From Candidatus Bathyarchaeia archaeon (GTDB taxonomy: Archaea; Thermoproteota; Bathyarchaeia; Bathyarchaeales; Bathycorpusculaceae): 64,000 bases of DNA. The notes under the pieces are model-generated. The model searched no databases. It saw only the letters and a program-made list of their open reading frames with translations, and had not been told where the DNA came from. The position numbers and the translations under genes are program-made. This document shows positions 8,463 to 62,663 of this stretch, piece after piece; the first letter of the stretch is position 1; each line of letters begins with the position of its first letter. The DNA lies in assembly GCA_050010755.1 (NCBI GenBank), contig JBEKKK010000001.1, forward strand, positions 928,001 to 992,000. The letters are read 5' to 3'.

Positions 8463-8836
8463 AAGCCAAGTGTTCAGAGCGCGCGCAACACTGCTGGTTG
8501 GATTTAGCTTTGCCTATGGAGTGTTCCTGGAAAACCGGTTGAACTAGAGGATGACAAATGGCGTCAAGAGGATACATAGATTTCAACTTAGATTACTGGT
8601 GCGCGTTCTGTGGACGCAGAGTTCCTAAAGGACAGGAAAAACACGACGTTCTAGGCCGACCGATAGACTGGAAATGAAACGCGCGCTAATATGAAAATAT
8701 CATTCTTTTCAGAAAACGCAAATGAAAGACAATCTTTGTAGGGGTGCAGGCTCTCTTTAGCGGCAACCCGCTTGGATTTCGAATTCATAAATTCTTTATC
8801 ACTTTGCGATTATATTTGTTGGATGGAAGTCTTGAA

Positions 8837-11966: not shown

Positions 11967-12069
11967 GTTTTATCATGAGTCTATGTATAATTAGAAATAC
12001 TTAAGATTATTTGGCACACGCTTTAGCACATAACGAGCGTAAACGCGTTTTAACGCGCGTTGAGTGTGC

Positions 12070-12590
12070 GCTTATACGCTGAAGCAATTAAGCCGATATC
12101 CTTATAAGCGCGTATGCGCTTTATATCTTATGAGGATAAGCAAAGAGGATGGATGTACATTGATGACAGAAATAGGAACGATGCTTGGTATTTGGCAATT
12201 TGCTTATTGGAAGAACTTCTGACACGTGGGAATCGTGCATTAAAAACTGATAGATATACAAAAGGTTGGTGATTCAAATGGGGCGAATTTGCGTGGAGCT
12301 TCCGGATGAGCTGGAGAAGAAGCTTAGGTTCAAGAGTATCGAGAGATTTGGCGGCAAGAAAGGCGACCTCTCAAAGGCTGTCGCAGAATCTGTGAGAACA
12401 TGGGTTGCCTTAGACAGATAGACGCACGAGCAAACCGCACATCATGAAACGTCCCCCCCAACAAAAAGATCCACGCTTCGAGTTGCATTCACAACCACCA
12501 GAACAACTTTCTTGGGAGAAAGGATTTAGTGGCGAAGGGCTCTTTTTCGGCTTCCTTTCGCCTTAACCACCGGCGAATTCAATGTTCTTT
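12070..12590 (+). repeat. ~520-bp module, copy A (inverted copy B at ~16420-16940)
   Basis: Shared AAGCAATTAAGCCGATATCCTTATAAGCGCGTATGCG, RHH gene and downstream sequence. Confidence 0.9.
12278..12421 (+). CDS. 47-aa ribbon-helix-helix protein (below ORF-track cutoff)
   Basis: MGRICVELPDELEKKLRFKSIERFGGKKGDLSKAVAESVRTWVALDR*; GGTGA RBS. Confidence 0.8.
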   Translation: MGRICVELPDELEKKLRFKSIERFGGKKGDLSKAVAESVRTWVALDR

Positions 12591-12671
12591 GCACCCATCA
12601 CGCAAGCTTTGTATGATTAGCGCGCGCAACTTTGATATCGCATTGTTTATCCATCTAGCGTGCTTTTGTGG

Positions 12672-12953
12672 CTAATCTCTGTGTTCGTGGGATTCCTCTT
12701 CCGATTCTTCTTCCGTTTCTTCTTCTTCCTCGCTAGCTTCTTCTCCTGCGTCGCTTGCTTCTTCCTCAGCTTGTCCCTTTGGGGGGTAAGCCCCGTCTAG
12801 CCAGACCATAAACTGCTCTTTGCTTTCCGAATCGGAAAAAACCCACTCACACAGTTCACTGACGACGATGTTGACATCAATTTCGTGATCGTCGGCCAGA
12901 TGCTTCAGCAACTGCGTCCACTTTTCAGGCAGAGATACTGCTAACCCAACCAT
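12672..12953 (-). CDS. Hypothetical RHH-like protein with acidic tail
   Basis: LAVSLPEKW..LL..LA N-terminus; E-rich C-terminus; sites at 12656 and 13001. Confidence 0.65.
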   Translation of the reverse strand: MVGLAVSLPEKWTQLLKHLADDHEIDVNIVVSELCEWVFSDSESKEQFMVWLDGAYPPKGQAEEEASDAGEEASEEEEETEEESEEESHEHRD

Positions 12954-13080
12954 CTTGCCTTTTCACCATGGTCATGTACCAATCAAACCCGTATTTAAGC
13001 TAGCGCACGCGAGCACTGGGCACACTGGAAAGAAGCGCAGGGTAGCTTCCGAAAGCTGAAAAGAGAGAATGTTGCGGGTT

Positions 13081-13233
13081 TTACCTTTGTTCTTTCGTCA
13101 ATAACAGTCTCTTCGCGATCTCTTTGGAGATCTTTTCGAGGCCTTCAGCAAGTTCTACACGGGTAACCTCATCTATCGGATACGCTTTTCCATTCTTATC
13201 GACGAATGCGAGTTCCAACTTCCTTTTTTCCAT
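13081..13233 (-). CDS. 50-aa hypothetical protein
   Basis: MEKRKLELAFVDKNGKAYPIDEVTRVELAEGLEKISKEIAKRLLLTKEQR*, preceded by GAGGTGA RBS. Confidence 0.6.
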   Translation of the reverse strand: MEKRKLELAFVDKNGKAYPIDEVTRVELAEGLEKISKEIAKRLLLTKEQR

Positions 13234-13348
13234 TCTTTCACCTCTTTCAAATCCTATTGTTCACTCTTAGTCTCTTGCTGGAGCCAGCCTGGCTCGACGG
13301 AGAGAGCATCCTTTTTTTGTCAATTAATCCGCTCTTTCTGTTTCTTGA

Positions 13349-13549
13349 CTAGCGCGTGTGCGCTGACCCTGAATGGAACGTTTGTCCCGAATGTTTGGGT
13401 ATAGTGTGACTTAACCTTCCTTTGCGGTAATATGCCTTGAATGTTTTCTTGCATTTGGAGCAAACAAAAAGCTTGATGTGGAAATCCGCAAATTCCCACT
13501 CCGTCGATGAATCTGAGGCTTCGTTTCCACACCTAGGACACAGCACCAT
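13349..13549 (-). CDS. Small zinc-ribbon protein
   Basis: CPRC...CSKC; stop lies inside a site. Confidence 0.7.
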   Translation of the reverse strand: MVLCPRCGNEASDSSTEWEFADFHIKLFVCSKCKKTFKAYYRKGRLSHTIPKHSGQTFHSGSAHTR

Positions 13550-13719
13550 TGTGTGATCTAGTTTCAGTATCAGCAAAACCGAAGATAAAAGTTTCGAAAG
13601 TGAAGCTCATTGTTATTTTCAGTTGGGTCTGGGCAAGCTTCCATAAATATTTCATAGTTTGCACTAAATGCTAACCTAAGAAAATTCTTGCAACGAAAAA
13701 AGAAGTGGTTCTGTTTGGC

Positions 13720-14028
13720 CTATCTCAGTAATTTCATGCTTTCTTCGAGACTCATTGCTAATTTGATTTCGCTCGTGTTCCAAGCCATCCATTTTACCAT
13801 TTCTGGTTCCATTGAGAATTCTTGCAGAGCATCTGAGCTTGGGGCTTCATAAACCCAGATTAATAGATGTTCCGGGACGACAGTCCAAGCTCCAATCCTT
13901 TTGACTCTATGTTTCTTCTCGAGTCCGACCAATTTGGCCGGTAATTCCAGGGTCATGTTCTTCATTTTCTCATTGTTAAGCGGACAGTTTTCTGCGGAAT
14001 GTCTGGAGATTATCAGGAATATCGGCAC
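13720..14028 (-). CDS. GYD/DUF3303-like small protein, copy 1
   Basis: FLIISRHS.ENCP, EHLL.WVYEAPS; near-identical paralogue at 37300-37608. Confidence 0.8.
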   Translation of the reverse strand: MPIFLIISRHSAENCPLNNEKMKNMTLELPAKLVGLEKKHRVKRIGAWTVVPEHLLIWVYEAPSSDALQEFSMEPEMVKWMAWNTSEIKLAMSLEESMKLLR

Positions 14029-14452
14029 ACAAGCACTCCTAAAAGTAAGAGTCTAGGAAAGTCGGATATAAGCTATTTGTGTGCATAAACTCGAGTCTAA
14101 GCCTTTGAGCGTAGTCTAAAAAGTGTTTACGCTCGTTATGTGCAATACGTGTGGAAACCAATTTAGAGAATATTTCATGGGAAGCACGTTGCGATTTGTT
14201 TTGAGCGCGCACAACGGCGGTTTGGGAAAGATTAGAGTGAGTAAAGAAACGACAGACAGGCATAAAACCTATCAATGACACTTCTCTCTGGCACACGCTT
14301 TTTTCTTTGAGCCCAACCCTTTTCAAGCATCAGAAGGGCCAGAGACCCACATTCTTACTTGCATTAACAAGCGCACCAATTCAAGTCCTAGCTAGCTGCA
14401 CACAGAAAAAATATAAGATAAATCCTGCATATAGGACTGTGGAGGAGTAGCT

Positions 14453-14971
14453 GTGCCTGAAAAAAAAGGAACGCTCGCGATTAAGAAGGCAAAGAAGCCT
14501 GTGCTTGCCGTTAGGAAACCTCAGCCCAGCGAGATTCGGAACTTCAACGAATTGTTGGACACTTTTCGGAATGAGTTTGGAGGTTACTTGTGGGATCCTT
14601 ACAGGGGATTCGAGTGGCCAGTCGAATATGAACTGCCAACGCGAATACCATATGTTGACGTTATCGACTCTGCCCACGAGTACGTCGTGAAAGCGGAGCT
14701 TCCAGGGTTGAAAAAGGAAAACGTGCAGATTGAAGTCTGGACGAACGAGTTGTCAATCACCGCTAGGTCTGACGTGGAGACGGAGGAGAAGGGAAAAACC
14801 TATCTGCACAGGGAACGGGCATTTTCCACGTTCCGCAGACGCATAGGATTTGGGCAAAGCATAGACACAGAAAAAGCGTCAGCAAACATGGCAGAAGGCA
14901 TCCTCGAAATAAAACTTCCCAAACTCGAGCCCAAAACTGAAAAGAAAACCAAAAAGCTAACACCCCAATAA
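14453..14971 (+). CDS. Hsp20/alpha-crystallin small heat-shock protein
   Basis: VKAELPGLKKENV, ERAFSTFRR.I, GILEIKLPK. Confidence 0.93.
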   Translation: MPEKKGTLAIKKAKKPVLAVRKPQPSEIRNFNELLDTFRNEFGGYLWDPYRGFEWPVEYELPTRIPYVDVIDSAHEYVVKAELPGLKKENVQIEVWTNELSITARSDVETEEKGKTYLHRERAFSTFRRRIGFGQSIDTEKASANMAEGILEIKLPKLEPKTEKKTKKLTPQ

Positions 14972-15174
14972 ACCCCTTTTTTTCCATCTAGCGCGCACGC
15001 TACGGCGTGATAGCCTCAACCAAACCCAAAGAAGACTGGGAGAAGACAAGCCACCCAGCGGCGAAATGCCAAAAAAGCGAGGATTAGTATGGTTTCCCGT
15101 TCTTCTTCTTTTCCAACTCTATTTTTGCATACCCAAGAACTCAATGTGATTGAATAGCGATTTAATGCGCGTGC

Positions 15175-15273
15175 GCTTGCTCAAATATAAAAGAAGCACA
15201 AGAATTGATTGAAGCTGGATTTGAATACGTTTGCACTCATGAGAATACAATGCTATTCAGAAAAAGAAAATAG
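15175..15273 (+). pseudogene. Orphan C-terminal fragment of an archaeal tyrosine recombinase/integrase
   Basis: SNIKEAQELIEAGFEYVCTHENTMLFRKRK* matches my recollection of the C-terminal signature of Bathyarchaeia site-specific integrases; no start codon; sites on both sides. Confidence 0.7.
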
Positions 15274-15368
15274 GCGCGTGCTATGTCAGATAGTTGGGAT
15301 GAGATAGACTGATAGAAGAAATTTACATACTTAAGCTGCATTTTTCTAGTTTTGATAACGATAATGTC

Positions 15369-15698
15369 ATGCGTGCTGCTCGAACGTTGAGTGATAAACC
15401 AGTAACTTTCAATGAACACAAACTGGAATATCCTAAGAATAGGGTCTTTCGCGCAGAATATGATGAGAGAACCAATGAAATTCAAGTGGTTTTAATATCA
15501 TCAGAAGCAGAAATAGGCAAGATTTTTGACGAAAATGGGCAGATATATGCTTCGGCTTCTGTTTTGAAGAACTACTTACCGACGTTGTTTTTTTCCGATC
15601 TTGTCCTAAAGATTGAGCCTCTTAAGTCGGGTTGCAAAACAAGTCTGACTCGAGTCCCAGATTTAGAAACAGCTATAAGGCTAATATTTTCCCGGTAG
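15369..15698 (+). CDS. Hypothetical protein
   Basis: 109-aa ORF with globular composition. Confidence 0.55.
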   Translation: MRAARTLSDKPVTFNEHKLEYPKNRVFRAEYDERTNEIQVVLISSEAEIGKIFDENGQIYASASVLKNYLPTLFFSDLVLKIEPLKSGCKTSLTRVPDLETAIRLIFSR

Positions 15699-15899
15699 TT
15701 TCTTTGGGTTTGGGGGTAAAGTTTTGTCTTTCCCCTGATTCTTGTTTCTTACTGTGTAACGGAGCAGGTGTCCGCATTTCCAGTCTATCGGTCGGCCTAG
15801 AACGTCGTGTTTTTCCTGTCCTTTAGGAACTCTGCGTCCACAGAACGCGCACCAAGACGCCTTATATTGAGGGCGTGCTGTGCCAAGAGAAGGAATCAA
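15681..15899 (-). CDS. Hypothetical small Cys-containing protein
   Basis: CAFC...C.H; ATGA overlap with the upstream Zn-finger ORF. Confidence 0.4.
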   Translation of the reverse strand: MIPSLGTARPQYKASWCAFCGRRVPKGQEKHDVLGRPIDWKCGHLLRYTVRNKNQGKDKTLPPNPKKLPGKY

Positions 15900-16075
15900 G
15901 AGCCCCGCACTTCCTTTTTCCTCGTCTCCCAGTATTCTTTTGCTTCCCCATACTCCTTTTCTTTTTCGTCTGCTCCCGATTTTCCCCTACATTCTGGGCA
16001 TAGGCACTTGCCCGCGTATTGCACATACCGGGTGTAGAACATCTTCCCGCAATTCTCGCATCGGTGATCGCCCAT
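15896..16075 (-). CDS. Small zinc-finger protein
   Basis: CENC...CPEC, GGAGG RBS. Confidence 0.6.
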   Translation of the reverse strand: MGDHRCENCGKMFYTRYVQYAGKCLCPECRGKSGADEKEKEYGEAKEYWETRKKEVRGS

Positions 16076-16174
16076 GATTTCGCCCTCCGCATAATAGTTA
16101 TCTTCCAAGCAAGGATTTAACAAGTTCTACATTAGTCAGCCTCAAAGAAATCGGCTAGTTAGCGTGCGCGCTTA

Positions 16175-16243
16175 CTACTCTTCAGCGTCTTCTTCCTCTT
16201 CGAAGTCTTCATCTTCGTCAGACTCTTCCTCCTCTTCAAACAT
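16175..16243 (-). CDS. 22-aa highly acidic peptide
   Basis: MFEEEEESDEDEDFEEEEDAEE*, RBS GGCGGTGA, TATA box TATTTAAG upstream; bounded by sites 16160 and 16305. Confidence 0.55.
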   Translation of the reverse strand: MFEEEEESDEDEDFEEEEDAEE

Positions 16244-16419
16244 CGTTTGGACTCACCGCCTTCGTCCTCAAAATTCAATTCCTCTTCTTTGGGTCTTAAA
16301 TAATTAGCGCGTACAGTTTTTCATTGAACAGTTCAGAAACAGAGTCTTCGAGTCAGTCTGCAGCGTTCATCCTTAGAGAAGACCGGACAAGATAAAAAAC
16401 TTGAAGTACGCTGGAATAA

Positions 16420-16940
16420 AGAGCATAAATATCACTCGTGCTTGAAGCGAAAGAAAGCCGAAAAAGGGTCTTTCGCGGAAACAGCTCTTATCCTCAGAAA
16501 ATTGCGTGTTGGTGGGGGGAAACGCAAATTCGAAGCGTGGAGTTTATGTTGAAAGGCCAATCGTAATTCATGGCTTCGTCCGTGTGTTCCTTGTCATTGG
16601 CAACCCATGTTGGTATGGATTCTTCAACGGCTTTCGATAGGTCGCATGTTATGCCGCCGAATCTTTCGATGGCGTTGAATCTGAGCTTCTTTTCAAGCTC
16701 ATCTGGAGGAGGCTCCACGCAAATTCGCCCCATTTGAATTACCAACTTTTTTGTATGACTTCAAAAGATGTGCACGATTCGCACGTGTCAGATCTTCTTC
16801 CAATAAGCAAATTGCCAAATACCAAGCATCGTTCCTATTTCTCTTATCATTGTACATCAATCCTATTTACTTATCCTCATAGTATATTATACGCATACGC
16901 GCTTATAAGGATATCGGCTTAATTGCTTAAGTGTGTAAGT
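16420..16940 (-). repeat. ~520-bp module, copy B, with a degenerate RHH gene (16494..16745)
   Basis: Reverse-complement similarity to 12070-12590; RHH copy has an extra Pro, substitutions and a read-through C-terminus. Confidence 0.85.
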
Positions 16941-17288
16941 CATCATCATAGCGCGCGTGCTTTAATCGATGGATGGAGAAGAATAGGTCGCAAGACAGAT
17001 ACCATCTACGCGAAGAAAGTATAACAATCACCAAGCCGACATGGAGATTTCCACCACCCTTTTTTATTTAACAGAAGCGCGGGCTAATAGGCGTTGAAGG
17101 TCTGTTTCTGTTCTAACCGGTGCCAGCCGCGGTTCTGATTCGTGAAGCCGAGGTTAGCTTGATTAGCGCGCGTGTAACTCGTTACTTGGGAACGTTTTAT
17201 CTCCTCGGATGGTGGTTGGGTTGGGGTAAAATCTTTGCGCGCGGTAAAGCCATTAGTAACAGTTTGCAATTGGTGGCTTGACCAATAA

Positions 17289-17450
17289 ATGATAATTGGA
17301 TGGTTGCTTATCATCGTAGGAATCTTATTCGCAATTTCTGGCATCGGTGAAACTGCAAGAATTCGAACACGTGGGAGAGGGGATTTCGTTTTTGCCTTGG
17401 CAGGTGCGGCTGGAATTTTGTTGATAGTCGTGGGTGCAATATTAGTTTAA
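17289..17450 (+). CDS. 53-aa two-TM membrane protein
   Basis: MIIGWLLIIVGILFAISGIG...GILLIVVGAILV*. Confidence 0.6.
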   Translation: MIIGWLLIIVGILFAISGIGETARIRTRGRGDFVFALAGAAGILLIVVGAILV

Positions 17451-17581
17451 GTGCCTGTTCCTTAGTGAAACTCAGAGAATCATACGACAGAAATCTTGAT
17501 CGGCACGGCAACACAAGACAAACTAGAGGTTCAAGAAGACTTATAGTCAAAGCCAAACGAAAGGAATAATGAGTCAAGAAT

Positions 17582-17800
17582 ATGGAAGGAAGAAAGAAAG
17601 TATTGATAATTTTCGGAATGATTCTTTTTATAATAGGCGTGGTCGTTTCATTCTATCCGACGGTCGCTCCATATAAAAGTGTAGGCATAGTTCTGGCTTT
17701 GGCTGGAAGCGTGTGTGTGGTATTGGGGTTACTTTACTCGCGCGCGCTACAGAAGATACGACCATCGCGTACTAACCCACAGCAACCTAGTTCAACTTAG
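17582..17800 (+). CDS. Small two-TM membrane protein
   Basis: Two hydrophobic helices; site at 17738-17749 near the C-terminus. Confidence 0.65.
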   Translation: MEGRKKVLIIFGMILFIIGVVVSFYPTVAPYKSVGIVLALAGSVCVVLGLLYSRALQKIRPSRTNPQQPSST

Positions 17801-17955
17801 ACCATTTTTCAAGAAGACAGAAATCTTTAATCTGTACGGCAAGAGAAGACAAACTGGGGATTCAAAATGAGTTGGAAAGCGCGTGCGCTTTTTCTTGATG
17901 TTGTCTGTTGACGTTCTGTGAAGTCTGCTGTTGGCTGTGCTCTTCTGCGGGGTTG

Positions 17956-18219
17956 TTACCTTTGGGTTGATGAATCACTTCTCATACGCGCATGAGGCTC
18001 AGAGGTTTCTCGCTCTAACAAAGCCCAGAATATGATGTCTCTTTCTGAGTTGACAGTTCCGCTATGTCTTACTGTCCATCCATCTCCAGCGTACTTGTTA
18101 AGAGCCTCAGTCCAATCACCTGCTTCTTCTTCTCCGTATGCGCCACCCTTACCACGCGCGCGCTGTCCAGTAAGGCGAGAGAAATCATAGGACATGTAAA
18201 TTACTTTGTATTGCAGCAT
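17956..18219 (-). CDS. DUF4177-like small protein
   Basis: QYKVI...LNKYAGDGW...LLERE. Confidence 0.6.
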   Translation of the reverse strand: MLQYKVIYMSYDFSRLTGQRARGKGGAYGEEEAGDWTEALNKYAGDGWTVRHSGTVNSERDIIFWALLERETSEPHARMRSDSSTQR

Positions 18220-18467
18220 AACCTATGATTACCTCTAGTCGTATTTAATGCTTGACGAACTCTGGTTATGCGTAGCGTGCGCGGGAGCAGCGGTGGGTTA
18301 CCCCTACCGAAAAAGACGATGAGTAAGACGGGCAGGCCCCAAAAGGCTATACTAGTTTAACCCGTTAGGGGTCTTTTATTTTAAAAAAATTACTCCTCGT
18401 GCTAATACGTGGTGTTTGGGGTAAAAAGGTTAAGGAAGTGCCTGTGCAATACGGATGAGTATTGACT

Positions 18468-18572
18468 CTACTTGGGTGCACAATCCTTATGATAGCTTTT
18501 CTTTGCAAAGAACCCTTTCGTCACTTCTTGTCCTGCAGGAATTTCGTTTCCACATTTCGCGCATTTGACCAT
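18468..18572 (-). CDS. 34-aa LIM-like zinc-finger microprotein
   Basis: MVKCAKCGNEIPAGQEVTKGFFAKKSYHKDCAPK*, GAGGAG RBS. Confidence 0.65.
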   Translation of the reverse strand: MVKCAKCGNEIPAGQEVTKGFFAKKSYHKDCAPK

Positions 18573-19082
18573 ACTGAACTCCTCACAGCATATCAGAAGT
18601 CTGCATATTTACGCTTATCGCAAATCCTTCAATTTCAAGGACACGGTTCAACGGGTAGGAGTTTGGGGGCGAAGTTTTTTCAATGTTCTTTTTGTGAGAA
18701 ATTGCCACAATTGCCTATAGCGCAGTCCGTCTTTGGGTGGCGAGCTTTAACTCAACGGTTTCTCATAGACTTAGCTGGTGAAAGTCGAAATTATAATGGC
18801 GTCTATGATGATATCACGTCAGTATGAAGGGATTTAAGTTCGGTTCTTTTTTCCCAGGATGATTTGACATTAAATCGATTCTGAGGCACCACAACACCAT
18901 CTTCTAAAGCAGGCTCACAATGAGCTTGCAGAGCAACTGAAGAAAAGCTGTAACGTGGAGACATGAAGTTGTCATTGTGAAAGGTAGCTCTCAAGACCGA
19001 TACAGAGACCTTAGGACGGGTCGTTTCGTTAGGAAGCCTTAGAAAAAGCGCGCTGGGAGGGGGTTAGAATTCAATGCTTTAC

Positions 19083-28588: not shown

Positions 28589-30424
28589 CTAGAAAGACCT
28601 AGATTCGCGCAAGTTCTGGAAGTGTTCTTTCAAGTATTCCTCAATCAAGCCATAAACAAAATCCAGCATGGGCGTGTCCTCAAAGATGAAATCTAGTGCA
28701 CATTGACGGGCACTAGTCATAGTGTAGCTTTTTCCCTTAAAGACAACAGTCTTTCCAAAATCACGAAAAGAGATATTCGCAAGCTCTCCAGCCGATTCCT
28801 TCCTACTGAGAAATATTCTCTGTTCGTTATCGGTTGGGCAGGACAAACCAAAGAATTCAACAGTTGGCCTGTCTGTAAATGCTTTTACTTCTTTTTTTGC
28901 ACTAAACAGTACTGCTTCAAGTGTAGCATTATCAAACAAGCTCAAATCTTTAACATTAGGGAAATTCGTGGAAATTATCTGATTGTAGACTGTTGGTAAA
29001 TTATCAAAGAATATTCCTAGATTCCTTTCAAGCGCCTCTGGTGAAAACACGTTCCAGACCCAATTTCCCAATTCTCGCGCTCTAGAAAAGTCTTTTCGCT
29101 CATAAGGCCTAGCGATTTTGCGATTTTCGTTCAATTTTAGCAATGAGAATAACTCATAGAAAATGCGAAAAGACAAAGCCCTGCTTCCGATTGGTATTAC
29201 GGGGATGGGTAAGTTCTTTTGAATCGATTCTTGCGTTTTTGTGGATATGTTTTTCCTCTCCTCTTCCGTCAAAGAATGAGATAGAAAGTCAGGGTCAAAA
29301 TAAGGTCTTCCAAAAAGAGCTTTAGAAAATGAATTGATGCCATTTCTCTTGACATCAATTATAAACTTAATAGTTTCGAAAGTCCACATCGGCAAGTACT
29401 GGAAAAATGCCTTACCGATTTCATCAATCGAATACTCATCTTTTTCGTCCAAACCCATCTGAACGTGAAACTTGTCAATGAAAGCAAAAACGAATTCTTT
29501 GGCAATGAATTCACTGCCCTGATGGTTTAACAATTTATGCTGTACCACTTCATTTACCATTTTTTCAATTTCTTCCATTGCAAATTGGCTGGGCCTTTTT
29601 CGAACAGGGTTTTCTGTGAAGTATCCAAAAGTGCTCAGGCCGTTCTTTTTCAACTCTTCATGAAGTCCTTCATCAACTTCTTTAATCAGAACGTCATTTT
29701 TTCCGTAAGGAATAGGATATAAAGCGTATCGAACGCTGTTTTCTTTATAGGAAAAGTAAGCCAAGCCGAGCTTCCAAGCAGTAGGATAAAATACCTTCTT
29801 GACAATAGAATATCGTCCGTCCAAGTATCTGTTAAGGCAGTCAAGGAAAACTTGAATTTCAGCGAATTCTCTCCTTTCAACGCCGACTACTGGATTGGTT
29901 TTCTCTAACAGTTTGATATAAACTTCATTTGCTCGCATAAGGTTGAAGAAGGATTGAACGATAGCTTTCCACTCTTCTATATACTTTGAATCACTTCCGT
30001 CAATGACATTTGAAGCTGGAAAATGGATAACTACAGATGCTTGTTGAAGCTTATCAAGAGGTTGTGTCAAGAGCTTACTGCTCACATGAACCCAAAACGC
30101 TTTCTTGCTCTCTGTGTCTACACCAACAAGTATGACAGGATTACAAGTGGCTTTCTCGCTGTAAGCAAAAAGTGAAGTAGGACATTGAATCTTGGGCAAT
30201 TTATCAGGTAGCTTCTTGATTTGAACCTCAAGCTTGCCGTAGGGCGAACCGCTATTGTCAACCAACTCCATATAGCCATCAATATTTGGAAATTTATCTC
30301 TCTCTTTGATGTCGAGCTTCACTCTGCTTTGGTCAACTAGCCCTTTGAAAATTGTTACCGACACTACTTCAGTAGTGTCGGTGGGAGAATAGGGGGCAGG
30401 TTTGACTTGTTTTTCCTCAGCCAT
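28589..30424 (-). CDS. DUF4365-type PD-(D/E)xK nuclease domain protein
   Basis: DKFPNIDGY.EL...LEVQIK N-terminal motif. Confidence 0.7.
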   Translation of the reverse strand: MAEEKQVKPAPYSPTDTTEVVSVTIFKGLVDQSRVKLDIKERDKFPNIDGYMELVDNSGSPYGKLEVQIKKLPDKLPKIQCPTSLFAYSEKATCNPVILVGVDTESKKAFWVHVSSKLLTQPLDKLQQASVVIHFPASNVIDGSDSKYIEEWKAIVQSFFNLMRANEVYIKLLEKTNPVVGVERREFAEIQVFLDCLNRYLDGRYSIVKKVFYPTAWKLGLAYFSYKENSVRYALYPIPYGKNDVLIKEVDEGLHEELKKNGLSTFGYFTENPVRKRPSQFAMEEIEKMVNEVVQHKLLNHQGSEFIAKEFVFAFIDKFHVQMGLDEKDEYSIDEIGKAFFQYLPMWTFETIKFIIDVKRNGINSFSKALFGRPYFDPDFLSHSLTEEERKNISTKTQESIQKNLPIPVIPIGSRALSFRIFYELFSLLKLNENRKIARPYERKDFSRARELGNWVWNVFSPEALERNLGIFFDNLPTVYNQIISTNFPNVKDLSLFDNATLEAVLFSAKKEVKAFTDRPTVEFFGLSCPTDNEQRIFLSRKESAGELANISFRDFGKTVVFKGKSYTMTSARQCALDFIFEDTPMLDFVYGLIEEYLKEHFQNLRESRSF

Positions 30425-30508
30425 TTAACATTTCCTTTCAAGCTTAGGCAAACATCTCTGTTTAAATGGATATAGGCTTTGCTGCACTTGACTTGGATTG
30501 ATAAGCAA

Positions 30509-30583
30509 CGGGTGGGGTGGGATTTGAACCCACGACCACTGGCTTAGAAGGCCAGTGCTCTATCCATGCTGAGCTACTCACCC
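30509..30583 (-). tRNA. tRNA-Arg(TCT)
   Basis: GGGTGAGTAGCTCAGCATGGATAGAGCACTGGCCTTCTAAGCCAGTGGTCGTGGGTTCAAATCCCACCCCACCCG cloverleaf; A6-C67 mismatch. Confidence 0.92.
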
Positions 30584-30648
30584 TTTCTAGCTAGGCCAAC
30601 AACGATATAGAAACTATTATAACAGTTTTGCAGAGAAAACTGAAGGAC

Positions 30649-31398
30649 ATGGAATACTCCGAATTTCTCACTCGTATCAGAGAAGTAAAGAAAATGGGCT
30701 ATGTCAAATCGCATCGAGAGGGACCTACAGGTATAGGAAAGACTCTTGAAGACTTGTTGGGGCTGAAAGAAAACAATATCCAAGGTCCAGATTTTTCAAA
30801 CTATGAACTAAAGGCTTCTAGAAAAGGGTCTAACTCAATGATAACTTTATTCACCAAGAAATTAGAACCTGATAGCGGAGAAAAGTTGTGGGAGACTTAC
30901 GGTAACCGAGGAAAAGGAAGTACTTCAAGCAAGTCTAAACAGACACTGCTTGTTGGTTCGGTGGGAGATGATGAGTACATCCCACCAAGTGAAAGGAGAC
31001 TGCATTCGACAGTTATAACTCAAGCTGAAAACCCTGACAGTTTCATTCTTGTGGTTGATGAAAACAGAATTACAATAAAAAACAAGAAGAACGTTGAATG
31101 TTACTATAGTCTTTCTATACTAAAGGAAACTCTGGAAAAGAAGTATGCTAGTCTGATTCATGTCTTAGCCGACCACAAGAAAGACAAAGGACAAGAATAT
31201 TTTTGGTTTAATGAAGCGTACCTCTATAGTGGGTTCGATTTTCCAACTCTTATGAAGGTCGTAAGAGAAGGAAGAATTAAAGTCGATGTCAGAATTGGAC
31301 ATTACCCTGATGGTAGAGTTCACGACCACGGAACTGGATTGAGAATTTCGCCAATCTATCTCCCAGAATGTTTTCAGTCGAAATCAAAGATTCTGTGA
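30649..31398 (+). CDS. MvaI/BcnI family restriction endonuclease
   Basis: G.TGIGKTLEDLLGL.ENN..GPD..YELK, HDHGTG.RI. Confidence 0.88.
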   Translation: MEYSEFLTRIREVKKMGYVKSHREGPTGIGKTLEDLLGLKENNIQGPDFSNYELKASRKGSNSMITLFTKKLEPDSGEKLWETYGNRGKGSTSSKSKQTLLVGSVGDDEYIPPSERRLHSTVITQAENPDSFILVVDENRITIKNKKNVECYYSLSILKETLEKKYASLIHVLADHKKDKGQEYFWFNEAYLYSGFDFPTLMKVVREGRIKVDVRIGHYPDGRVHDHGTGLRISPIYLPECFQSKSKIL

Positions 31399-31431
31399 TT
31401 TCATGCTCCCTATGAGGAACACATATCTCTT

Positions 31432-32352
31432 TTAGTTAGGTGGTTTCCAGAAATCAAGCATAAATTCCATCGTCGCCCCCAAAGAGATAAAATTGTTTGG
31501 CCAGCCAAAAATCCCAACTTTGTTTACGAGGTTACGTTTGTCCCAAATGAAAGTGTTCCTAAACTCGAAACCAGCTTTTTGTAATGCTTCCATTACGTAG
31601 ACATGAGTCGGGATGCGCTTGTTATTTTCCCACACATCATTAACATTTATGACGCAATGAGCTTTTGTTCTCATCAGCGGAAGAATTCCAGAGTAAATCT
31701 CTTCAAGAGCCTTGCCATACTGATCGTGATTCATCGTGCCAAGGTCTCGCGCATCATTAGAATACTGTTGGACCTTTAGATAGTGGCTGTTCTTCCTTAG
31801 GTCTCCCCTGATGCTCTTGTTCAGGCGCTGGTGAGCGAGCATGTTGGCGTAGGGCGGCGAGGTTATACACAAAGAAACCGTATTATTTTCCAAGTATTGA
31901 GGGATTTTGTGCGCGTCGTCAAGGATGGCAATCTGTTGCGTGTTATCGTCTACAATCCTTTTTTGCGCAAGCCTCTTCTTGCTTATCTCTATGTATTCCT
32001 TTTTCAAGTCAAATCCTACAGCATTTCTGCCCAAATCTTGTGCGGCTACGAGGGATGTTCCAATGCCAACAAAGGGGTCCAGAACCAGTTCTCCTTTGTG
32101 GGTTAAAATCCTGATGAAGTGTGCGGGCAGGGCTATAGGAAACACGGCAGGGTGGACATCTTTGTCTCGAATGTCCCTGCTTTCGTAATAGAACTCTTTG
32201 ATTTCATCCTCTGTTATTGGGAATTCTTGAATAATGACCTGGCTCTTGACCCATTCTTTCGCGGTAATACAGCTAATATGGCTCGGTGAACAATCGCATG
32301 TTTTTACATAGTTTATGTCTAATTTCTTCTCTGAATCCGTCGCTTGAACCAT
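31432..32352 (-). CDS. N4/N6 DNA methyltransferase, convergent with the endonuclease
   Basis: HPAVFP, VLDPFVGIGT, ITSPPY. Confidence 0.88.
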   Translation of the reverse strand: MVQATDSEKKLDINYVKTCDCSPSHISCITAKEWVKSQVIIQEFPITEDEIKEFYYESRDIRDKDVHPAVFPIALPAHFIRILTHKGELVLDPFVGIGTSLVAAQDLGRNAVGFDLKKEYIEISKKRLAQKRIVDDNTQQIAILDDAHKIPQYLENNTVSLCITSPPYANMLAHQRLNKSIRGDLRKNSHYLKVQQYSNDARDLGTMNHDQYGKALEEIYSGILPLMRTKAHCVINVNDVWENNKRIPTHVYVMEALQKAGFEFRNTFIWDKRNLVNKVGIFGWPNNFISLGATMEFMLDFWKPPN

Positions 32353-33939: not shown

Positions 33940-36423
33940 TCAGCGCGCGCTGTGCGGGTTTGGGTTTTGTTTGTAGAGTATTGTTTTTGCGATTTCTCGC
34001 CAGATGATGGCTATTATGGCGAAGCCTAGTATTATGGCGAATTGTTCTGCTGCGACGGGGGCTAGTTTGAGTTGGCTTGTGACTGGTGGAACCGTTTGGG
34101 CGATGATTAGAAACGCAAAGGCGAGAACTGCCCACAGATCCATTATCCTGTTCGATAATGGGCCTATTGCGTATAGTGGTTCTTTTTCGGATCGCATGAC
34201 AAAGGCCAGGATGATGTGGCCCATTATCCACGCTGAGAAAGCGTATGCTTGCACGGTTACGGCAGGTAGCCTCTGTGACCACGCGTAGAAGTATGCGAGC
34301 ATCACGGCTACGAATAGGCTCGTGGCGGATATGGCCATGTCCGTTACCATTTTCGAGTCAGGAAACTTTGCTTTTGGATCTCGGGGTTTTCTGTCGTAGA
34401 TTGTTTTTTCGGCCGGTTCGGTGACGAATCCTGCGGAAGCGGCGATGTCCATGAACAGTTCAAGCACGATAATCTGTATCGGAGCAAACGGCAAGGGCAT
34501 GGCCGGATAGAAATACTCGATGCCCAGCGCAAAAACGAACAGTGAGATAAGTGCAGCTTTGATTGCCAAATAGTACTTTAGACCCTTCCTAAGGTTGTCG
34601 AAGAAAGTGCGGCCTTCGAACACGGCGCGACCGATGGTCACAAAGTTGTCATCGGTCAAAACGACGTCTGCAGCTTCTTTGGCCGCATCTGTGCCCTTAG
34701 TGCCCATGGCGATTCCAACGTCGGCTCCCTTCAAAGCCAGGGTGTCGTTGACCCCGTCGCCCGTGACCGCGACCACTTCACCATTCGCATGCAGCGCCTT
34801 GACGAGCGCGTATTTGTCCTCAGGCGTCGTTCTTGCAAACACGGAGACCTCTTTGACGATGTCCTGAACTTCCTTGTCGGAAATGCCTCGAAGCTGCTCA
34901 CCCGTGAACACCTTTCCCGATGGGATTCCGACGCTTTTCGCGATGTAAGCCGCGGTCTGCGGGTGATCACCCGTGACCATGATGGTTCTGATTCCAGCAT
35001 TGCGAATAGACTGAATCGTTTCTTTGACGCCAGCGCGTGGAGGATCCTCGATTGAGACTAGGCCGATGAAATCCCAGTTTCCCTCTAATTCTGAAAGCGG
35101 CAATTCTGCTTCATCAGCAGAGACTTCTTTTTCTGCGACGCCGATTACCCTTCTTCCCTTTTCAGCTTCACTCTCGAGTTCATCTCTGAAAACATCACCC
35201 TGACCGTCCGCGCCCAAAATTTCCTCAGGTGCCCCCGCAGCTGAGAGCATGAAGACCCCGTTCTTCTCGCGCAGCACGGCTTTGGTCCGCTTGCCTATCT
35301 GGAAGCCCCGTTCGTGAACGACTCTGCCGAAGTCCGTTTGCACCTTTAGCGACTTGGCTTTTTCCAGAATTGCCTTATCAGTCGGGAACAGTGACCCCTC
35401 TGTCAATGCTGCCGTGGCTGCGCTCAGCGTCTTGGCCTCTTCTTGGCGCGGGTAGACTTGAACGACCTGCATCTTATTCTCAGTGATTGTGCCCGTCTTG
35501 TCTGTGAGGATGATGGTTGCATCGCCTAGGGTTTCTGCCGCCTTGAGCTTCTTGACTAGGAAGCCTTCTCGAGAGAGCCTGTATGATCCTAAGCCCAGTA
35601 TCATGGTGATTATGATTGGCAGTTCTTCGGGGATAGCAGCAAATGCCAGTGCCAACCCAGTCAATATCAGCGTTTTGTCCTCAAACAGATCTCGGTATCC
35701 GTAGCGCAAGATGCCCAAAGCAGGGATAACTATGCTGAAGAACATGGCAACGTACGCGAGCGTTATAGAAAGTTTTTTCATGGATAACTGCAAGGGCGTT
35801 TTCGGAGGCTTGATAGCCTGAGCCATGGCGGATATCTTTCCGAACCTGCTGTTCTTGCCCGTTGCATATGCTTCTCCTTGTCCTTCCCCTGAAAGCACGA
35901 GGGTTCCAGCGTAAACATCGTCTCCGACCTTCTTCTCCTGCGGAAGAGACTCGCCCGTTAAAACTGACTCGTCCACTTGAATGTCATATGACACATCGAG
36001 CTTACAGTCCGCTGCAACCCTTGTTCCCTCGACAAAGACCAGCAGGTCTCCGGGAACCACTTTTTCAGTTTCAACCTCGACTATTCTCCCATCCCGCACA
36101 ACCCTTGTCTTGGGAGCCGCAAGCACAGAAAGCGCCGATATAGACTTCTTAGCCCTGAATTCATTCCAGATCTCAACGAAAACCAAGACGAAGATAACGC
36201 TGAAAATCGTAACAGCGTCCTCCACGTTTGGCCACTCGAAAATAGTATAGAGAACGCCTACAACAAGCAAAAGCAGAATCATGGGCTCGACAACTTCTTC
36301 CTTGGCGATGCCCAAGAAACTCACCGTGTAAGGCTTGGCAATCTGATTCGGCCCGACTTCCCGAAGCCTCTCCTCCGCCTTAGCAGTCGAAAGGCCTTCA
36401 GACTTTACGCCAGAACCCTGCAT
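33940..36423 (-). CDS. Cation-transporting P-type (type II) ATPase
   Basis: TGES, IPEELP, DKTGT, TGDGVND; ends SAR* in a site. Confidence 0.95.
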   Translation of the reverse strand: MQGSGVKSEGLSTAKAEERLREVGPNQIAKPYTVSFLGIAKEEVVEPMILLLLVVGVLYTIFEWPNVEDAVTIFSVIFVLVFVEIWNEFRAKKSISALSVLAAPKTRVVRDGRIVEVETEKVVPGDLLVFVEGTRVAADCKLDVSYDIQVDESVLTGESLPQEKKVGDDVYAGTLVLSGEGQGEAYATGKNSRFGKISAMAQAIKPPKTPLQLSMKKLSITLAYVAMFFSIVIPALGILRYGYRDLFEDKTLILTGLALAFAAIPEELPIIITMILGLGSYRLSREGFLVKKLKAAETLGDATIILTDKTGTITENKMQVVQVYPRQEEAKTLSAATAALTEGSLFPTDKAILEKAKSLKVQTDFGRVVHERGFQIGKRTKAVLREKNGVFMLSAAGAPEEILGADGQGDVFRDELESEAEKGRRVIGVAEKEVSADEAELPLSELEGNWDFIGLVSIEDPPRAGVKETIQSIRNAGIRTIMVTGDHPQTAAYIAKSVGIPSGKVFTGEQLRGISDKEVQDIVKEVSVFARTTPEDKYALVKALHANGEVVAVTGDGVNDTLALKGADVGIAMGTKGTDAAKEAADVVLTDDNFVTIGRAVFEGRTFFDNLRKGLKYYLAIKAALISLFVFALGIEYFYPAMPLPFAPIQIIVLELFMDIAASAGFVTEPAEKTIYDRKPRDPKAKFPDSKMVTDMAISATSLFVAVMLAYFYAWSQRLPAVTVQAYAFSAWIMGHIILAFVMRSEKEPLYAIGPLSNRIMDLWAVLAFAFLIIAQTVPPVTSQLKLAPVAAEQFAIILGFAIIAIIWREIAKTILYKQNPNPHSAR

Positions 36424-59634: not shown

Positions 59635-60333
59635 CTATTCTATTTTGTCCTTTTTAGCCAGGTTGTGCCTTGCGCATAGTAGTTGGATGTTTTCGGTCAC
59701 TAGTGACGATCCCCCTTTAGAATAGGGAATGATATGGTCAAAGTGCAGGTTGTCGTGGCTTCCACAGATGACGCAGGCCCCCTTATCTCGTTTCCATACT
59801 TCCATTTTTACAGATGCTGGGATGATGCGGTTGTGATCAATCTCCTGGGACGAGACTTGAGGAATTTCATCGGTCAGTTCAAGCTTGAATTTGAAAACAT
59901 TACGACTATTGCTCTTTTCCTGCCATGAATCCACAAGTTTAAAGATGCCATTATAGGTCCAGATGCCTGGTCTGATCTTTTCGTAGACCTTCACAAGCTC
60001 GGCCTTTTTCTTTTGCTGTTTATAGTCGTTCGCGGCCTCGTAGAACAATCCGTTCTGAGTTAGAGAGCCAGTTGGATTGTACATCGGTTGATCCACCGTT
60101 TTGGGATTTCGTCCCCCAGCCAATTTTGGAGCATCATGGCCTTCATAAATTAGTACTCTGCCGTTTTCCTCGATCCTATCGGCGTATGGAGCACCTGTCC
60201 TTATGCTCATCAAAATAACACTGAACCCACCACGCAATCGAAAATTCATTCCCCTTTGAAGATTGACGCCCTCTTCTCTGCACACGTCTAGATAGGAAAG
60301 CAGGTCTCCAACGTTGAGCATTGGATGCCTCAT
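59635..60333 (-). CDS. HNH endonuclease with N-terminal SRA/PUA-like domain
   Basis: CVICG...LHFDHIIPYSKGG...NIQLLCARHN; PYAD...LIYEG; bounded by sites 59625 and 60383. Confidence 0.85.
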   Translation of the reverse strand: MRHPMLNVGDLLSYLDVCREEGVNLQRGMNFRLRGGFSVILMSIRTGAPYADRIEENGRVLIYEGHDAPKLAGGRNPKTVDQPMYNPTGSLTQNGLFYEAANDYKQQKKKAELVKVYEKIRPGIWTYNGIFKLVDSWQEKSNSRNVFKFKLELTDEIPQVSSQEIDHNRIIPASVKMEVWKRDKGACVICGSHDNLHFDHIIPYSKGGSSLVTENIQLLCARHNLAKKDKIE

Positions 60334-60472
60334 AAGAAGGTTGCTGGCCAGAATATAAATTCTAGCTAGCACGGTAACCTTTTCGCGCGCGTCGGCGCGA
60401 ACCAACGAAGTTTATATTTGGTTAGTTCAATACTAAGCTTACTACGACTTCTCACATCGGTGCTTATCAAAA

Positions 60473-61495
60473 ATGCCTCCAAAGAAAATTGTTTATCTGT
60501 TTGGAGCTGGTGCAACGATAGCAGAGACGCAATATGCCGGGGTTCAAGAAAAACCCTCGCTGGAATATATCTCTGAAACAGTGATAAGGAAAGCCAAAGA
60601 AGAAGGTGAATTGGCTGAGGCACTTAGCGAAATCGAACCAGACGACATCACCGATATTGAACTGTACATAAGTCTACTGGAATCTGCCCGCACAAAAAAG
60701 TATCTCGAGCTTGCAGGCAAGCTACGCTCTCTGTTCTCCAAGAGCATACAGGATGCATTGAAGATGGAGGGTAACATTATCGAACCAATGCTTACAAATG
60801 CCTTACTTCAAATGCATGGGACAATAAGAGAAGAAGAGAGATTTGCGGGGGCGATTTCCCTTAATTATGATAATCTTCTCGATCGTGCCTTTAATGGAGT
60901 CTTTGGTGGAGTAAACTATGGAATCGATTGCAGATGTAAAAAAGCAGGATATAGTATTAGAAAACGGGGTCCAGCATTGCTCAAACTACATGGATCCTTT
61001 AACTGGAGTCGGGGCTTTCCGTCAGTTGAAATCGATGAAGAACAGGCACAATTAGGCGAAGAGGAATCGATGCTATGGATTCCTCCAGGTATCGAGAAAG
61101 ATAAGGATGCCTACCCATTCAATATTTTATGGGGAAAAGCCTTTGAGATGCTTGATTGTGATGTTCTTAGAATTGTTGGATGTAAACTTAAACAAAATGA
61201 TTGGGGGTTGTTGTCACTGATTTTTAATACTCAATTGGAAACCGATCAAACATATGAAATACAATTGATTGATTTTCACCGAGAGGGCGAGTTGATAAGG
61301 CAGCGAAACGGTTTCCTTAGAAATGTCAAGATTCTGGGGGAATTGGAGAACTGCCAGGACTTGGTTGATCCTCCACCTTCTAATCCTTTTGAAAGTTGGT
61401 TAAGACTCAAACTCGCCTCGCTTAGGGAAAAAGGTGTTCGTATTGATGAATTGGGGTTAGATCATATTAATGCATTGTTAGGAGCGACCAACTAA
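60473..61495 (+). CDS. SIR2-like domain protein
   Basis: VYLFGAGA, SLNYD, LKLHGS.NW. Confidence 0.85.
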   Translation: MPPKKIVYLFGAGATIAETQYAGVQEKPSLEYISETVIRKAKEEGELAEALSEIEPDDITDIELYISLLESARTKKYLELAGKLRSLFSKSIQDALKMEGNIIEPMLTNALLQMHGTIREEERFAGAISLNYDNLLDRAFNGVFGGVNYGIDCRCKKAGYSIRKRGPALLKLHGSFNWSRGFPSVEIDEEQAQLGEEESMLWIPPGIEKDKDAYPFNILWGKAFEMLDCDVLRIVGCKLKQNDWGLLSLIFNTQLETDQTYEIQLIDFHREGELIRQRNGFLRNVKILGELENCQDLVDPPPSNPFESWLRLKLASLREKGVRIDELGLDHINALLGATN

Positions 61496-62544
61496 TGAAG
61501 CGTAAAATTGAGGAATGGCCGGCCAAAGAACTTTATGCAAAGAGAAACTCGATTCAATACCCTGATTTCCAAAGAGAGCCCACTGTCTGGAACGAAGTAA
61601 AGAGGCAACTATTGATCGACTCGATGTTAATAGGTCTGGACATACCTAAAATCTACTTATACCAACCAGAAGAAGGCCAGGTCAATGTCCTTCGTCCAGG
61701 GAGAAGACAAATTGATAATTATGACTGCATTGATGGCCAACAGAGGATAGTATCCGTTATCGATTTTTTCAGTCAGAGTCTAAAACTCAAAGATGGTCGC
61801 TACTGGCGTAATCTAACTTTTGAAGAACAACAAACTCTTCTCAATTATAAGTTCACAATTGCGCTTGTTACTATAGCCACTGAAGAAGATTTGAGGCTTC
61901 TCTTTCTCAGACTTCAGCTGGGCTCTATTCTCAATGTGGGAGAAAAACTACATGCAATGAAAGGAGGTATGCACGACTTTGTATTTGACGTTGGCAAGAA
62001 TCATCCCTTCTTTGTTAAAGTGACTATACCCGAAAGAAGATTTGCCAGAGAGACGGTGTTTGCTCAGATTTGCATAAACTCCTTCTATCGTTCGCTTCAC
62101 GGCACCTTTTATAGCGCAAGATACGAAGAACTCAAAGCTTTTTTTGCGCAGTATTCGAATTTGGAGGAATACGGGAGTGAAGTGACACGAATTAGGCATA
62201 CTTTGGATCTGTTAGACCAATACTTTGGAGTCGAAGCAACTCAGTTCAGGAACAGAGCAACCATAGTTTCAGGGTACTTGTTCTTTGAACAATTGATTGT
62301 AAAGGATGAAACAGAAAAACTTCCAATATTCGTGAAATTCTATTTAGAATTCTTGCGGAAGCTGTCACAACAATCGTCTAGAGGACTTGACTACGATCCG
62401 CAATACAGAGGATTATTGGATTTCCAAACTAACATCCTCCAAGCAGCAGTTAGCAGGGCAGCGATAGAAGCAAGGAATAGAATATTGGAAGAATATTTTG
62501 ATTATTACTTGGAAACCAAGAAAATAAAGACAACTCCTCTATGA
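61495..62544 (+). CDS. DUF262 (ParB-like) domain protein
   Basis: PDFQRE..W, LIDS, IDGQQR, LF.RLQ.G..LN; start overlaps the Sir2 stop (TAATG). Confidence 0.88.
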   Translation: MKRKIEEWPAKELYAKRNSIQYPDFQREPTVWNEVKRQLLIDSMLIGLDIPKIYLYQPEEGQVNVLRPGRRQIDNYDCIDGQQRIVSVIDFFSQSLKLKDGRYWRNLTFEEQQTLLNYKFTIALVTIATEEDLRLLFLRLQLGSILNVGEKLHAMKGGMHDFVFDVGKNHPFFVKVTIPERRFARETVFAQICINSFYRSLHGTFYSARYEELKAFFAQYSNLEEYGSEVTRIRHTLDLLDQYFGVEATQFRNRATIVSGYLFFEQLIVKDETEKLPIFVKFYLEFLRKLSQQSSRGLDYDPQYRGLLDFQTNILQAAVSRAAIEARNRILEEYFDYYLETKKIKTTPL

Positions 62545-62663
62545 TGTTGTGAATTTCATTCCAATCATATTGCCAGTCTACGCGCTAAAGCTCCTCTTCA
62601 CCACCCTTCGTTTTTATATGCGGTTAGAATATATCATATTCATTACTGTCCGTAGATGACTGA

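Follow-up and report, generated by a model that had tools for sequence, protein, structure and literature searches.

At issue here is a fragment of a tyrosine integrase gene that lies between two copies of a short GC palindrome in the genome of a Candidatus Bathyarchaeia archaeon, and the question that this locus raises is whether the integrase family acts on the palindrome or was itself cut by a process that leaves the palindrome behind. The window, meaning the whole 64,000-nucleotide (nt) stretch of DNA that was analysed, corresponds to positions 928001-992000 of contig C1 of genome G000 (2.19 Mb in 8 contigs), and positions given without a contig are window positions. An earlier sequence-only reading had noticed a startless frame between two sites, assigned its last residues to a tyrosine integrase family common in Bathyarchaeia, and proposed that this family was either the enzyme working on the palindrome or simply cargo cut by it. 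Our data point to the latter: the fragment is probably a dead integrase tail that was cut at a palindrome of rearrangement junctions, with the integrase as victim and not as enzyme. The features on which this turns are the following.

15166-15176, no strand: upstream palindrome copy (TGCGCGTGCGC), at the 5' break of the integrase remnant.
15181-15270, plus strand: integrase remnant, which corresponds to the final 30 codons of a gene for a tyrosine integrase and is recognised by its translation, paralogue matches, tail consensus and DNA alignment.
15271-15283, no strand: stop codon TAG and second site (TAGGCGCGTGCTA), the TAG (15271-15273) being the first three bases of the site.

The two sites do bracket a frame that has no start of its own, as had first been read. 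On the plus strand the frame is open from 15166 to 15270, reading CACAC and then SNIKEAQELIEAGFEYVCTHENTMLFRKRK, with a TAA directly ahead of it at 15163-15165; the frame has no potential start codons other than a TTG at 15205, which is internal, and an ATG at 15250, so that the conserved part of the remnant lacks a start. Compared with its own genome the 30-residue peptide matched five further places, among them two at E 2.6e-8 and 8e-7, the second within a 319-codon open frame. The remnant comprises only the residues equivalent to approximately 286-317 of the intact 317-residue paralogue, its DNA aligns with longer integrase fragments of the genomes G001-G003, and the catalytic domain with its active-site residues and tyrosine is not present in it. 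The remnant is a relic of a member of the integrase family, not a working member, and taken on its own the tail is an ordinary pseudogene remnant.

The intact paralogue on contig C2 (the 319-codon frame) matches PF00589 at residues 122-272 of 317 with an E value of 3.5e-14, which places the conserved tail outside the catalytic domain. It has 738 homologues at E <= 1e-3, which, where the sources give a name, are site-specific integrases of Bathyarchaeia, and the family assignment of the sequence-only reading is thereby upheld. Among the best 120 homologues a GFEYV-like box occurs within the last 45 residues in 101, the ending FRK[RK]K is found in 78, and the tail consensus is KTVxEAxxLIExGFEYVTExxxxKLFRKRK, to which the window peptide conforms. 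The family was matched in 39 of the 41 related genomes, and it is linked to tRNA genes. The intact C2 integrase shares its first codons with the 3' end of a tRNA-Leu(GAG) gene; when the best match per genome was taken from 30 genomes, 27 were near full length, and 11 of these 27 have a tRNA gene at most 56 nt away. A tRNA gene also stands beside 7 of 20 fetched integrase fragments and adjoins two other orphan tails of G000. The sole tRNA gene of the window, at 30509-30583, is not near the remnant. As a separate observation, C-terminal-only integrase fragments (from about residue 197-250 to the end) far outnumber N-terminal ones among the matches listed for the 41 Bathyarchaeia genomes, and in relatives many of them are followed, 25-70 nt after the stop codon, by the 3' end of a tRNA gene in convergent orientation. 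We suggest that the integrase gene would lie at the border of its element and point its 3' end at the tRNA gene, where internal deletions would spare the tail, and this position is the likeliest reason for the excess of C-terminal fragments of the integrase and of Cas1.

If the tail was cut at the palindrome, other shortened copies of the same gene should tell us where. Approximately 30 integrase fragments were looked at overall. In G000 a GC-alternating palindrome lies 0-50 nt 5' of the start of homology in 5 out of 6 orphan tails. From relatives 20 fragments were fetched and 18 inspected, 10 from motif-rich and 8 from motif-poor genomes, and the palindrome stands exactly at the 5' edge in 5 of the 10 versus none of the 8. 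It is also found at breaks at residue 135 (in G003) and at residue 228 (in G002). A metagenome scan with an 18-mer of the tail returned 68 loci, 43 of which were chance matches without integrase homology; the remaining 25 integrase loci include 9 short tails, and 7 of the 9 have a palindrome within 38 nt upstream, although three of these seven are identical to the G000 sequence and two are near-duplicates, leaving 3 independent cases. One metagenome locus (L076) runs palindrome, 33-codon tail, stop, approximately 40 nt, and the 3' end of a convergent tRNA gene, and the copy on contig C4 of G000 is arranged in the same way. Because integrase copies break anywhere from residue 135 to approximately 290, the palindrome cannot have a set position within the gene, and at the positions that correspond to the breaks the intact gene carries none. 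A palindrome at the breaks of shortened copies, with the break itself variable in position, is what the sequence-only reading's wording of cargo cut by the palindrome describes. In two independent fragments the break coincides with the native CCGCGC of NPRL codons; microhomology at the breaks was rejected as a general rule, as a dockerin-type fragment shows no CCGCGC-like match at its break.

These breaks also bear on the SSV1-type splitting that the sequence-only reading had brought up, whereby the remnant would be the int(C) half of a 'suicidal' integrase split on integration and the palindrome an attachment (att) site within the gene. Type I archaeal integrases are split upon integration, according to PMC8371274, and the surplus of C-terminal pieces across relatives described above would suit such an origin. 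The fragments themselves tell otherwise. A tblastn search with the full protein retrieved one intact gene, one frameshifted gene and otherwise C-terminal pieces from G000, and no N-terminal integrase piece was found nearby or anywhere in the genome, which upholds the orphan status first given to the tail and leaves int(C) without a partner. The intact paralogue is whole beside its tRNA-Leu, and it is the stop codon of the fragments, not their 5' break, that faces the tRNA gene. With the break varying, no palindrome at the corresponding place of the intact gene and the stop turned toward the tRNA gene, an SSV1-type split is as good as ruled out.

A further idea, that the tail is kept as a functional small peptide or as regulatory DNA, has next to no probability. 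Four of five inspected orphan tails are free of internal stops and several retain the LFRKRK end, although open frames mean little here because the fragments are only 30-45 codons long. On the other hand no start codon precedes the conserved part, one copy has two stops, no Rfam family was matched in window positions 12000-19000, and remnant lengths vary widely.

The same kind of cut is seen in genes that have nothing to do with integrases. Several short segments between close palindromes are orphan 3' ends of unrelated genes: one is the last 129 nt of a paralogue of the gene at C1:212637-213797, and in another the final 30 codons and the stop of a dockerin-type gene survive, the stop being followed directly by a palindrome. 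All intergenic DNA of the genome was compared with the predicted proteins of the same genome, using gene calls from a simple home-made codon-usage caller; 30 matches to a spurious open reading frame (ORF), which is really a non-coding repeat, were removed, and 117 gene fragments were kept. Their counts by class, each with the number that have a palindrome at most 40 nt upstream of the 5' edge, are given below.

C-terminal fragments: 33, of which 8 with the palindrome.
N-terminal fragments: 16, of which 0.
Internal fragments: 52, of which 1.
Full fragments: 16, of which 0.

The palindrome is thus at the 5' edge of 8/33 C-terminal versus 1/84 other fragments, the classes being approximate because the gene calls are rough, and intergenic positions drawn at random give 4.7% (binomial p = 1.1e-4). 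Of the eight C-terminal fragments, three derive from dockerin-type genes, two are integrase tails, and the others are the ends of a transposase-like, a NikR-like and a DNA ligase gene. The integrase gene is one of many victims of a palindrome-linked process, and not its enzyme.

What then is the palindrome? It is close to TAGCGCGCGCTA, and by two definitions there are 467-488 sites in the genome. A logo of 192 TAGCGCGC sites gives TAGCGCGCGC(TA) with no conservation farther out, so the element spans about 10-12 base pairs (bp). GCGCGCGC is approximately 11-fold above its zero-order expectation in G000. In the window, GCGCGTGC occurs 9 times versus 1.15 expected, a count reached in 0 of 100 shuffles, and the 14-mer of 14989-15002 has 22 matches with at most 3 mismatches versus 2.7 expected. 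Merged sites number 467 genome-wide (0.21 per kb) versus 49 in the window (0.77 per kb), and the densest regions of contig C1 are the window and 1.30-1.38 Mb. For comparison among 41 genomes we counted the 10-mer TAGCGCGCGC with both strands summed, as follows.

G000: 129 copies.
Four congeners: 48-231 copies.
G021: 142 copies.
G018: 56 copies.
Four further genomes: 7-19 copies.
Remaining 30 genomes: 0-3 copies.

The palindrome is therefore abundant (at least 48 copies) in only 7 of the 41 genomes, and can be described as a lineage-restricted element of approximately 10-12 bp, without conserved flanks, that is concentrated in accessory islands.

This distribution speaks to the other half of the sequence-only reading, according to which the integrase family may be the recombinase for the palindrome, so that recombination would take place at the two copies beside the tail. 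The motif does stand on both sides of the tail and at the 5' edge of the five G000 tails mentioned above. Likewise, the copy-number correlation proposed in the sequence-only reading was indeed found, with family matches and palindrome counts giving a Spearman coefficient of 0.59 (0.45 without the genus) over the 41 genomes, kinship uncorrected; since these counts include fragments, which the palindrome process would multiply, the correlation is equally expected if the integrase is a victim. The association does not hold in nine genomes, which have 7-12 family matches yet at most 3 palindromes and are thereby nearly motif-free despite bearing the family, and more broadly the family spans nearly all of the genomes whereas the motif abounds in seven and is down to 0-3 copies in 30. 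If the family used the palindrome one would look for it next to complete genes, and the sequence-only reading had proposed checking beside the stop codons of full-length homologues. There it lies within 80 nt past the stop in 1/27, as compared with the 11/27 that have a tRNA gene nearby, and within 120 nt before the start of homology in 1/27, so no association is seen; in six near-full-length metagenome copies no palindrome was found anywhere in the loci. The spread of break points from residue 135 to about 290 and the like cutting of unrelated genes also tell against the family as enzyme, as does the site itself. Tyrosine recombinase sites consist of two arms and a spacer and are far longer than 10-12 bp, so that a motif of this length without conserved flanks appears too short for them. 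The integrase as enzyme is largely refuted by these data, and we hold it to be very unlikely.

Genome-wide, the palindrome has a preferred place with respect to genes. We found 128 sites 0-39 nt past a stop codon versus 25 sites 0-39 nt ahead of a start; the stop codon overlaps a palindrome copy in 18 genes and is often the motif's own TAG. Only 96 of 488 sites lie within predicted genes, though 78% of the genome is predicted to be coding, and the 49 sites of the window are divided into 39 intergenic ones, 4 over ORF ends and 6 within predicted ORFs. Runs of T follow several copies, and spacings below 250 bp between palindromes are in excess (76/459). In the window, an 827-residue P-type ATPase gene (33940-36423, minus strand) has its last three sense codons built from a palindrome (33940-33950).

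Such a position could also be that of a mere regulatory or 3'-end signal, terminator-like or bound by a protein, with no part in rearrangements, and what has to be decided is whether the palindrome marks places where DNA was joined. The 16 kb around the remnant show no long synteny with four congeners, and are a mosaic of 100-1500 bp blocks that are scattered, reordered and inverted in other genomes. Clusters of block boundaries are within 25 nt of a palindrome in 15 of 80 cases versus 8.5% expected. When the genome was compared with itself, block ends peaked 0-10 nt from the palindrome (62 versus a background of 15-25 per bin) and were depleted just past this peak. Both sets of boundary counts are inflated by the intergenic location of the palindrome, as similarity blocks mostly stop between genes in any case. 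At the remnant, similarity blocks of three other genomes stop exactly at window position 15274 (query position 7275). Three other cases are cleaner. In a syntenic core region palindromes are confined to two non-syntenic inserts, and next to the right edge of one of these G000 and G002 each have a palindrome at a distance of 15-27 nt. The block upstream of the remnant and strain contigs, described below, are the other two, and the block adds two features.

14453-14971, plus strand: Hsp20 gene (Pfam HSP20, E 1.5e-20), the block upstream of the remnant.
14989-15002, no strand: palindrome copy (TAGCGCGCACGCTA), 18 nt past the hsp20 stop, at the right-hand junction of the hsp20 block.

The hsp20 block is found in three unrelated contexts in three species (G000, G001 and G002), and its homology to G001 and G002 stops at the 14989-15002 copy. 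The palindrome is exactly at the end of homology in 4 of 6 hsp20 junctions, with a decayed copy at a fifth, and its offset from the block varies by 20-30 nt among species. Strains were compared using contigs (not reads) of other peat and wetland runs against positions 12500-18500, some of the joints being short-sided or of low depth. Run X5 has AGCGTGCGC where the window has the 213 nt of 14125-14337, and it lacks 513 nt directly past the palindrome copy at 16949-16960. In run X9 a contig joins 15171, within the copy upstream of the tail, to 16137 on the opposite strand, and in run X3 different DNA ending in a palindrome precedes the blocks that start at 12668, 14403 and 15709. A simple target-duplication model was rejected, given that the 213 nt replaced in X5 are not flanked by palindromes in G000.

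Two inverted repeats were also seen in this region. One (12071-12416 and 16592-16939, 75-93% complementary) carries small ribbon-helix-helix-like ORFs and encloses 4.2-4.5 kb with hsp20 and the integrase tail; one of its arms stops 10 nt from the palindrome at 16949. The other is of 80 bp (8597-8676 and 15775-15854), with copies 100% identical and 7 kb apart, and its copy at 8597-8676 lies within a 195-bp block between two palindromes.

For a mere signal one can cite the sharp peak 0-40 nt past stop codons, the T runs behind several copies, and the intergenic location that confounds the boundary counts. It does not foresee a palindrome at variable breaks inside former coding sequences, the 8/33 versus 1/84 split among gene fragments, a palindrome in place of 213 nt in run X5, or offsets from one and the same block that differ between species, and the palindrome is missing from most genomes that share the gene families. 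We consider a signal with no role in rearrangement unlikely on these grounds. The palindrome marks junctions at which blocks of DNA have been truncated, lost, inverted or brought into new contexts, and the whole palindrome remains at the junctions.

In the explanation that we propose, the junctions would arise by breakage or recombination anchored at the palindrome, in the course of which varying lengths of palindrome-adjacent DNA would be lost or replaced and the palindrome itself would be retained. At the locus in question the rest of the integrase gene and its element would have been removed, and the tail left between two palindrome copies. Such palindrome-anchored loss would explain why integrase remnants differ in length and why DNA not under selection has shrunk to short segments between palindromes, as well as the stop codons supplied by the motif and the differing offsets around one block. 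Two routes can be envisaged. The first is palindrome-anchored deletion, in which a hairpin- or Z-DNA-prone tract would stall replication, which would then realign on short GC matches. The second is capture or exchange of DNA at the palindrome by some enzyme. Although more tentative, it is conceivable that the palindrome serves some Bathyarchaeia lineages as the junction site in a cassette-exchange system not described before, through which genes and pieces of DNA would be captured, inverted, swapped and trimmed. Such a system would have an integron-like layout, with a minimal site at the stop codon of each unit and the integrase tail as a worn-down cassette, and its enzyme would possibly be of the Cas1 type or another non-tyrosine integrase.

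Several candidate agents were considered and most were set aside; those examined by presence across genomes were PF00078, PF01797, PF01867, the integrase family, a 432-residue recombinase and a Cas1 class of approximately 340 residues. Copying of mRNA 3' ends into 5'-truncated complementary DNA by a reverse transcriptase was rejected, PF00078 having no matches in the 41 genomes; the control search matches 3 of 14 known genomes. A HUH Y1 transposase (RAYT or IS200-type) was likewise rejected: PF01797 was not found in G000, G003, G018 and G021, and is present in 5 of the 41 genomes. An active multi-copy insertion sequence ending in the palindrome was rejected too, as G000 compared with itself has no long repeats that are nearly identical (80-92% identity in the best pairs), and the paralogue families of G000 are ordinary. 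A Pfam scan of 194 proteins, 65 from the window and 129 from dense regions and small contigs, revealed no nuclease or recombinase tied to the motif. G000 has three PF00589 matches, none of them within the window. A 432-residue tyrosine recombinase (C1:1348836-1350131; L138:922-2217) heads the second palindrome-dense island, with TIR-domain defence genes following it, and its first approximately 45 codons match many genomes at 65-93%, with stop codons inside the matching stretch; this suggests that its start overlaps a conserved RNA gene or an att site. As a motif-specific enzyme it was rejected, since relatives exist in 30 of the 41 genomes, motif-poor ones included. Finally, as a candidate kept in view, a class of Cas1 proteins of approximately 340 residues (C1:658436-659461 of G000, minus strand; L168:3436-4461) scores below the CRISPR-type Cas1 of relatives and may be a casposase. 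G003, G004, G021 and G008 each have multiple copies of it and many C-terminal fragments; the single G000 copy and a neighbour gene lie between palindromes, and no terminal inverted repeat was found around that copy. This class does not follow the motif, as it also occurs in the motif-poor G008, G012 and G030, and G002 has a fragment only.

A number of points have to be set against the integrase as a victim of palindrome-anchored loss. No agent was found among the candidates above, and the mechanism is inferred from junction anatomy alone. The sixth orphan tail of G000 has no palindrome and lies 40 nt from a tRNA gene, and 5 of the 10 integrase fragments from motif-rich genomes are without one. 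The related fragment of G002 has GCACGTGCTAT in the same spot 3' of its stop, and the downstream site at 15271-15283 may in part be ancestral flank. To these are added the correlation with family matches, the inflated boundary counts and the roughness of the fragment classes, each as qualified above.

The window itself is an accessory and defence island with many small ORFs. By Pfam its gene content includes an MvaI/BcnI-type restriction-modification pair, GmrSD, SRA-HNH, DUF4365, Hsp20, P-type ATPases, GNAT, glyoxalase and DinB. Defence-type genes are located at 28589-32352 and 59635-63917, namely DUF4365, the MvaI/BcnI-type endonuclease with an N4/N6 methylase, an SRA-HNH nuclease, a SIR2-like gene, GmrSD and a further methylase. 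Elsewhere in the genome a different dispersed non-coding repeat of approximately 100-170 nt, of which at least 27 copies have two units, supplies some of the genome's most over-represented 8-mers; none of its copies is in the window. It is composed of TTTTCGGAAC, a GCGCACGC-like box, CAACATGGAAA, two or three GCAACATTACA units and then TCTGATGTAAAGAAAAAAAGGGGAGGGG, and copies can be seen at C1:1307350-1307540 (L154:7350-7540) and C1:1251700-1252220.

Since the parent gene is well known, the tail shows exactly where DNA was cut, and its value is that of a marker: the cut site carries a short GC palindrome. That the palindrome recurs at cuts in unrelated genes, where blocks common to several species end, and at strain-level indels points to a lineage-specific process that both builds and erodes the accessory and defence islands of Bathyarchaeia, an abundant uncultured group. 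Should an enzyme be behind the palindrome, we would have a cassette system of a new kind whose site is very small; should there be none, the palindrome, being prone to form Z-DNA, would be a natural hot spot of rearrangement. In the literature on Bathyarchaeia integrases, tRNA integration, intergenic palindromes and suicidal integrases we found no description of the palindrome or the tail, and the accessible portions of PMC10848311 and PMC11697101 contain nothing bearing on either.

How does this compare with known systems? Classical archaeal tyrosine integrases of the pNOB8 type, which are lambda-like, stay intact on integration at tRNA genes, as stated in the available text of PMC8371274. 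The parent family appears to resemble them, judging from its PF00589 domain, its members beside tRNA genes and an intact copy that is whole when integrated. It is unlike them in its own conserved tail past the catalytic tyrosine, which was not found described in that same portion of PMC8371274, and the window is unlike them in having only the last 30 codons and no tRNA gene near. On integration the SSV1-type 'suicidal' integrases are broken into an int(N) and an int(C) part (PMC7253208 and PMC8371274). Orphan integrase pieces near tRNA genes of archaeal chromosomes are common to both; in contrast to the SSV1 type, here there is no int(N), the breaks are variable, and the stop codon rather than the break is toward the tRNA gene.

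With integron cassettes the likeness is one of layout only, that is, a single gene followed by a palindrome resembling a recombination site at or over its stop codon. Sites are likewise arrayed in accessory islands, and blocks are reordered between strains. The window also holds GNAT, glyoxalase, DinB and small ribbon-helix-helix genes, which are typical of integron cassettes. The attC sites of integrons are structured and approximately 60-140 bp in length, being long imperfect inverted repeats with core boxes, unlike a palindrome of 10-12 bp that has no extended consensus. Also unlike integrons, no IntI-like gene was found beside the array of the window, though the 432-residue recombinase heads the second island, and the offset of the site from the same block is variable.

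Among short dispersed bacterial palindromes are the REP/BIME elements with their RAYT transposases and the dRS3/NIME mosaics of Neisseria. To our knowledge, marking the points at which genes are truncated is no described feature of REP/BIME, dRS3/NIME or HIP1. The palindrome is shorter than REP, and no RAYT was found in G000, G003, G018 and G021. HIP1 is a short dispersed palindrome of cyanobacteria (PMC5861425), from which the present one differs in avoiding coding sequence. In common with REP/BIME, dRS3/NIME and HIP1, the Bathyarchaeia palindrome is short, lineage-specific, strongly over-represented, mostly extragenic and tied to mosaic intergenic DNA.

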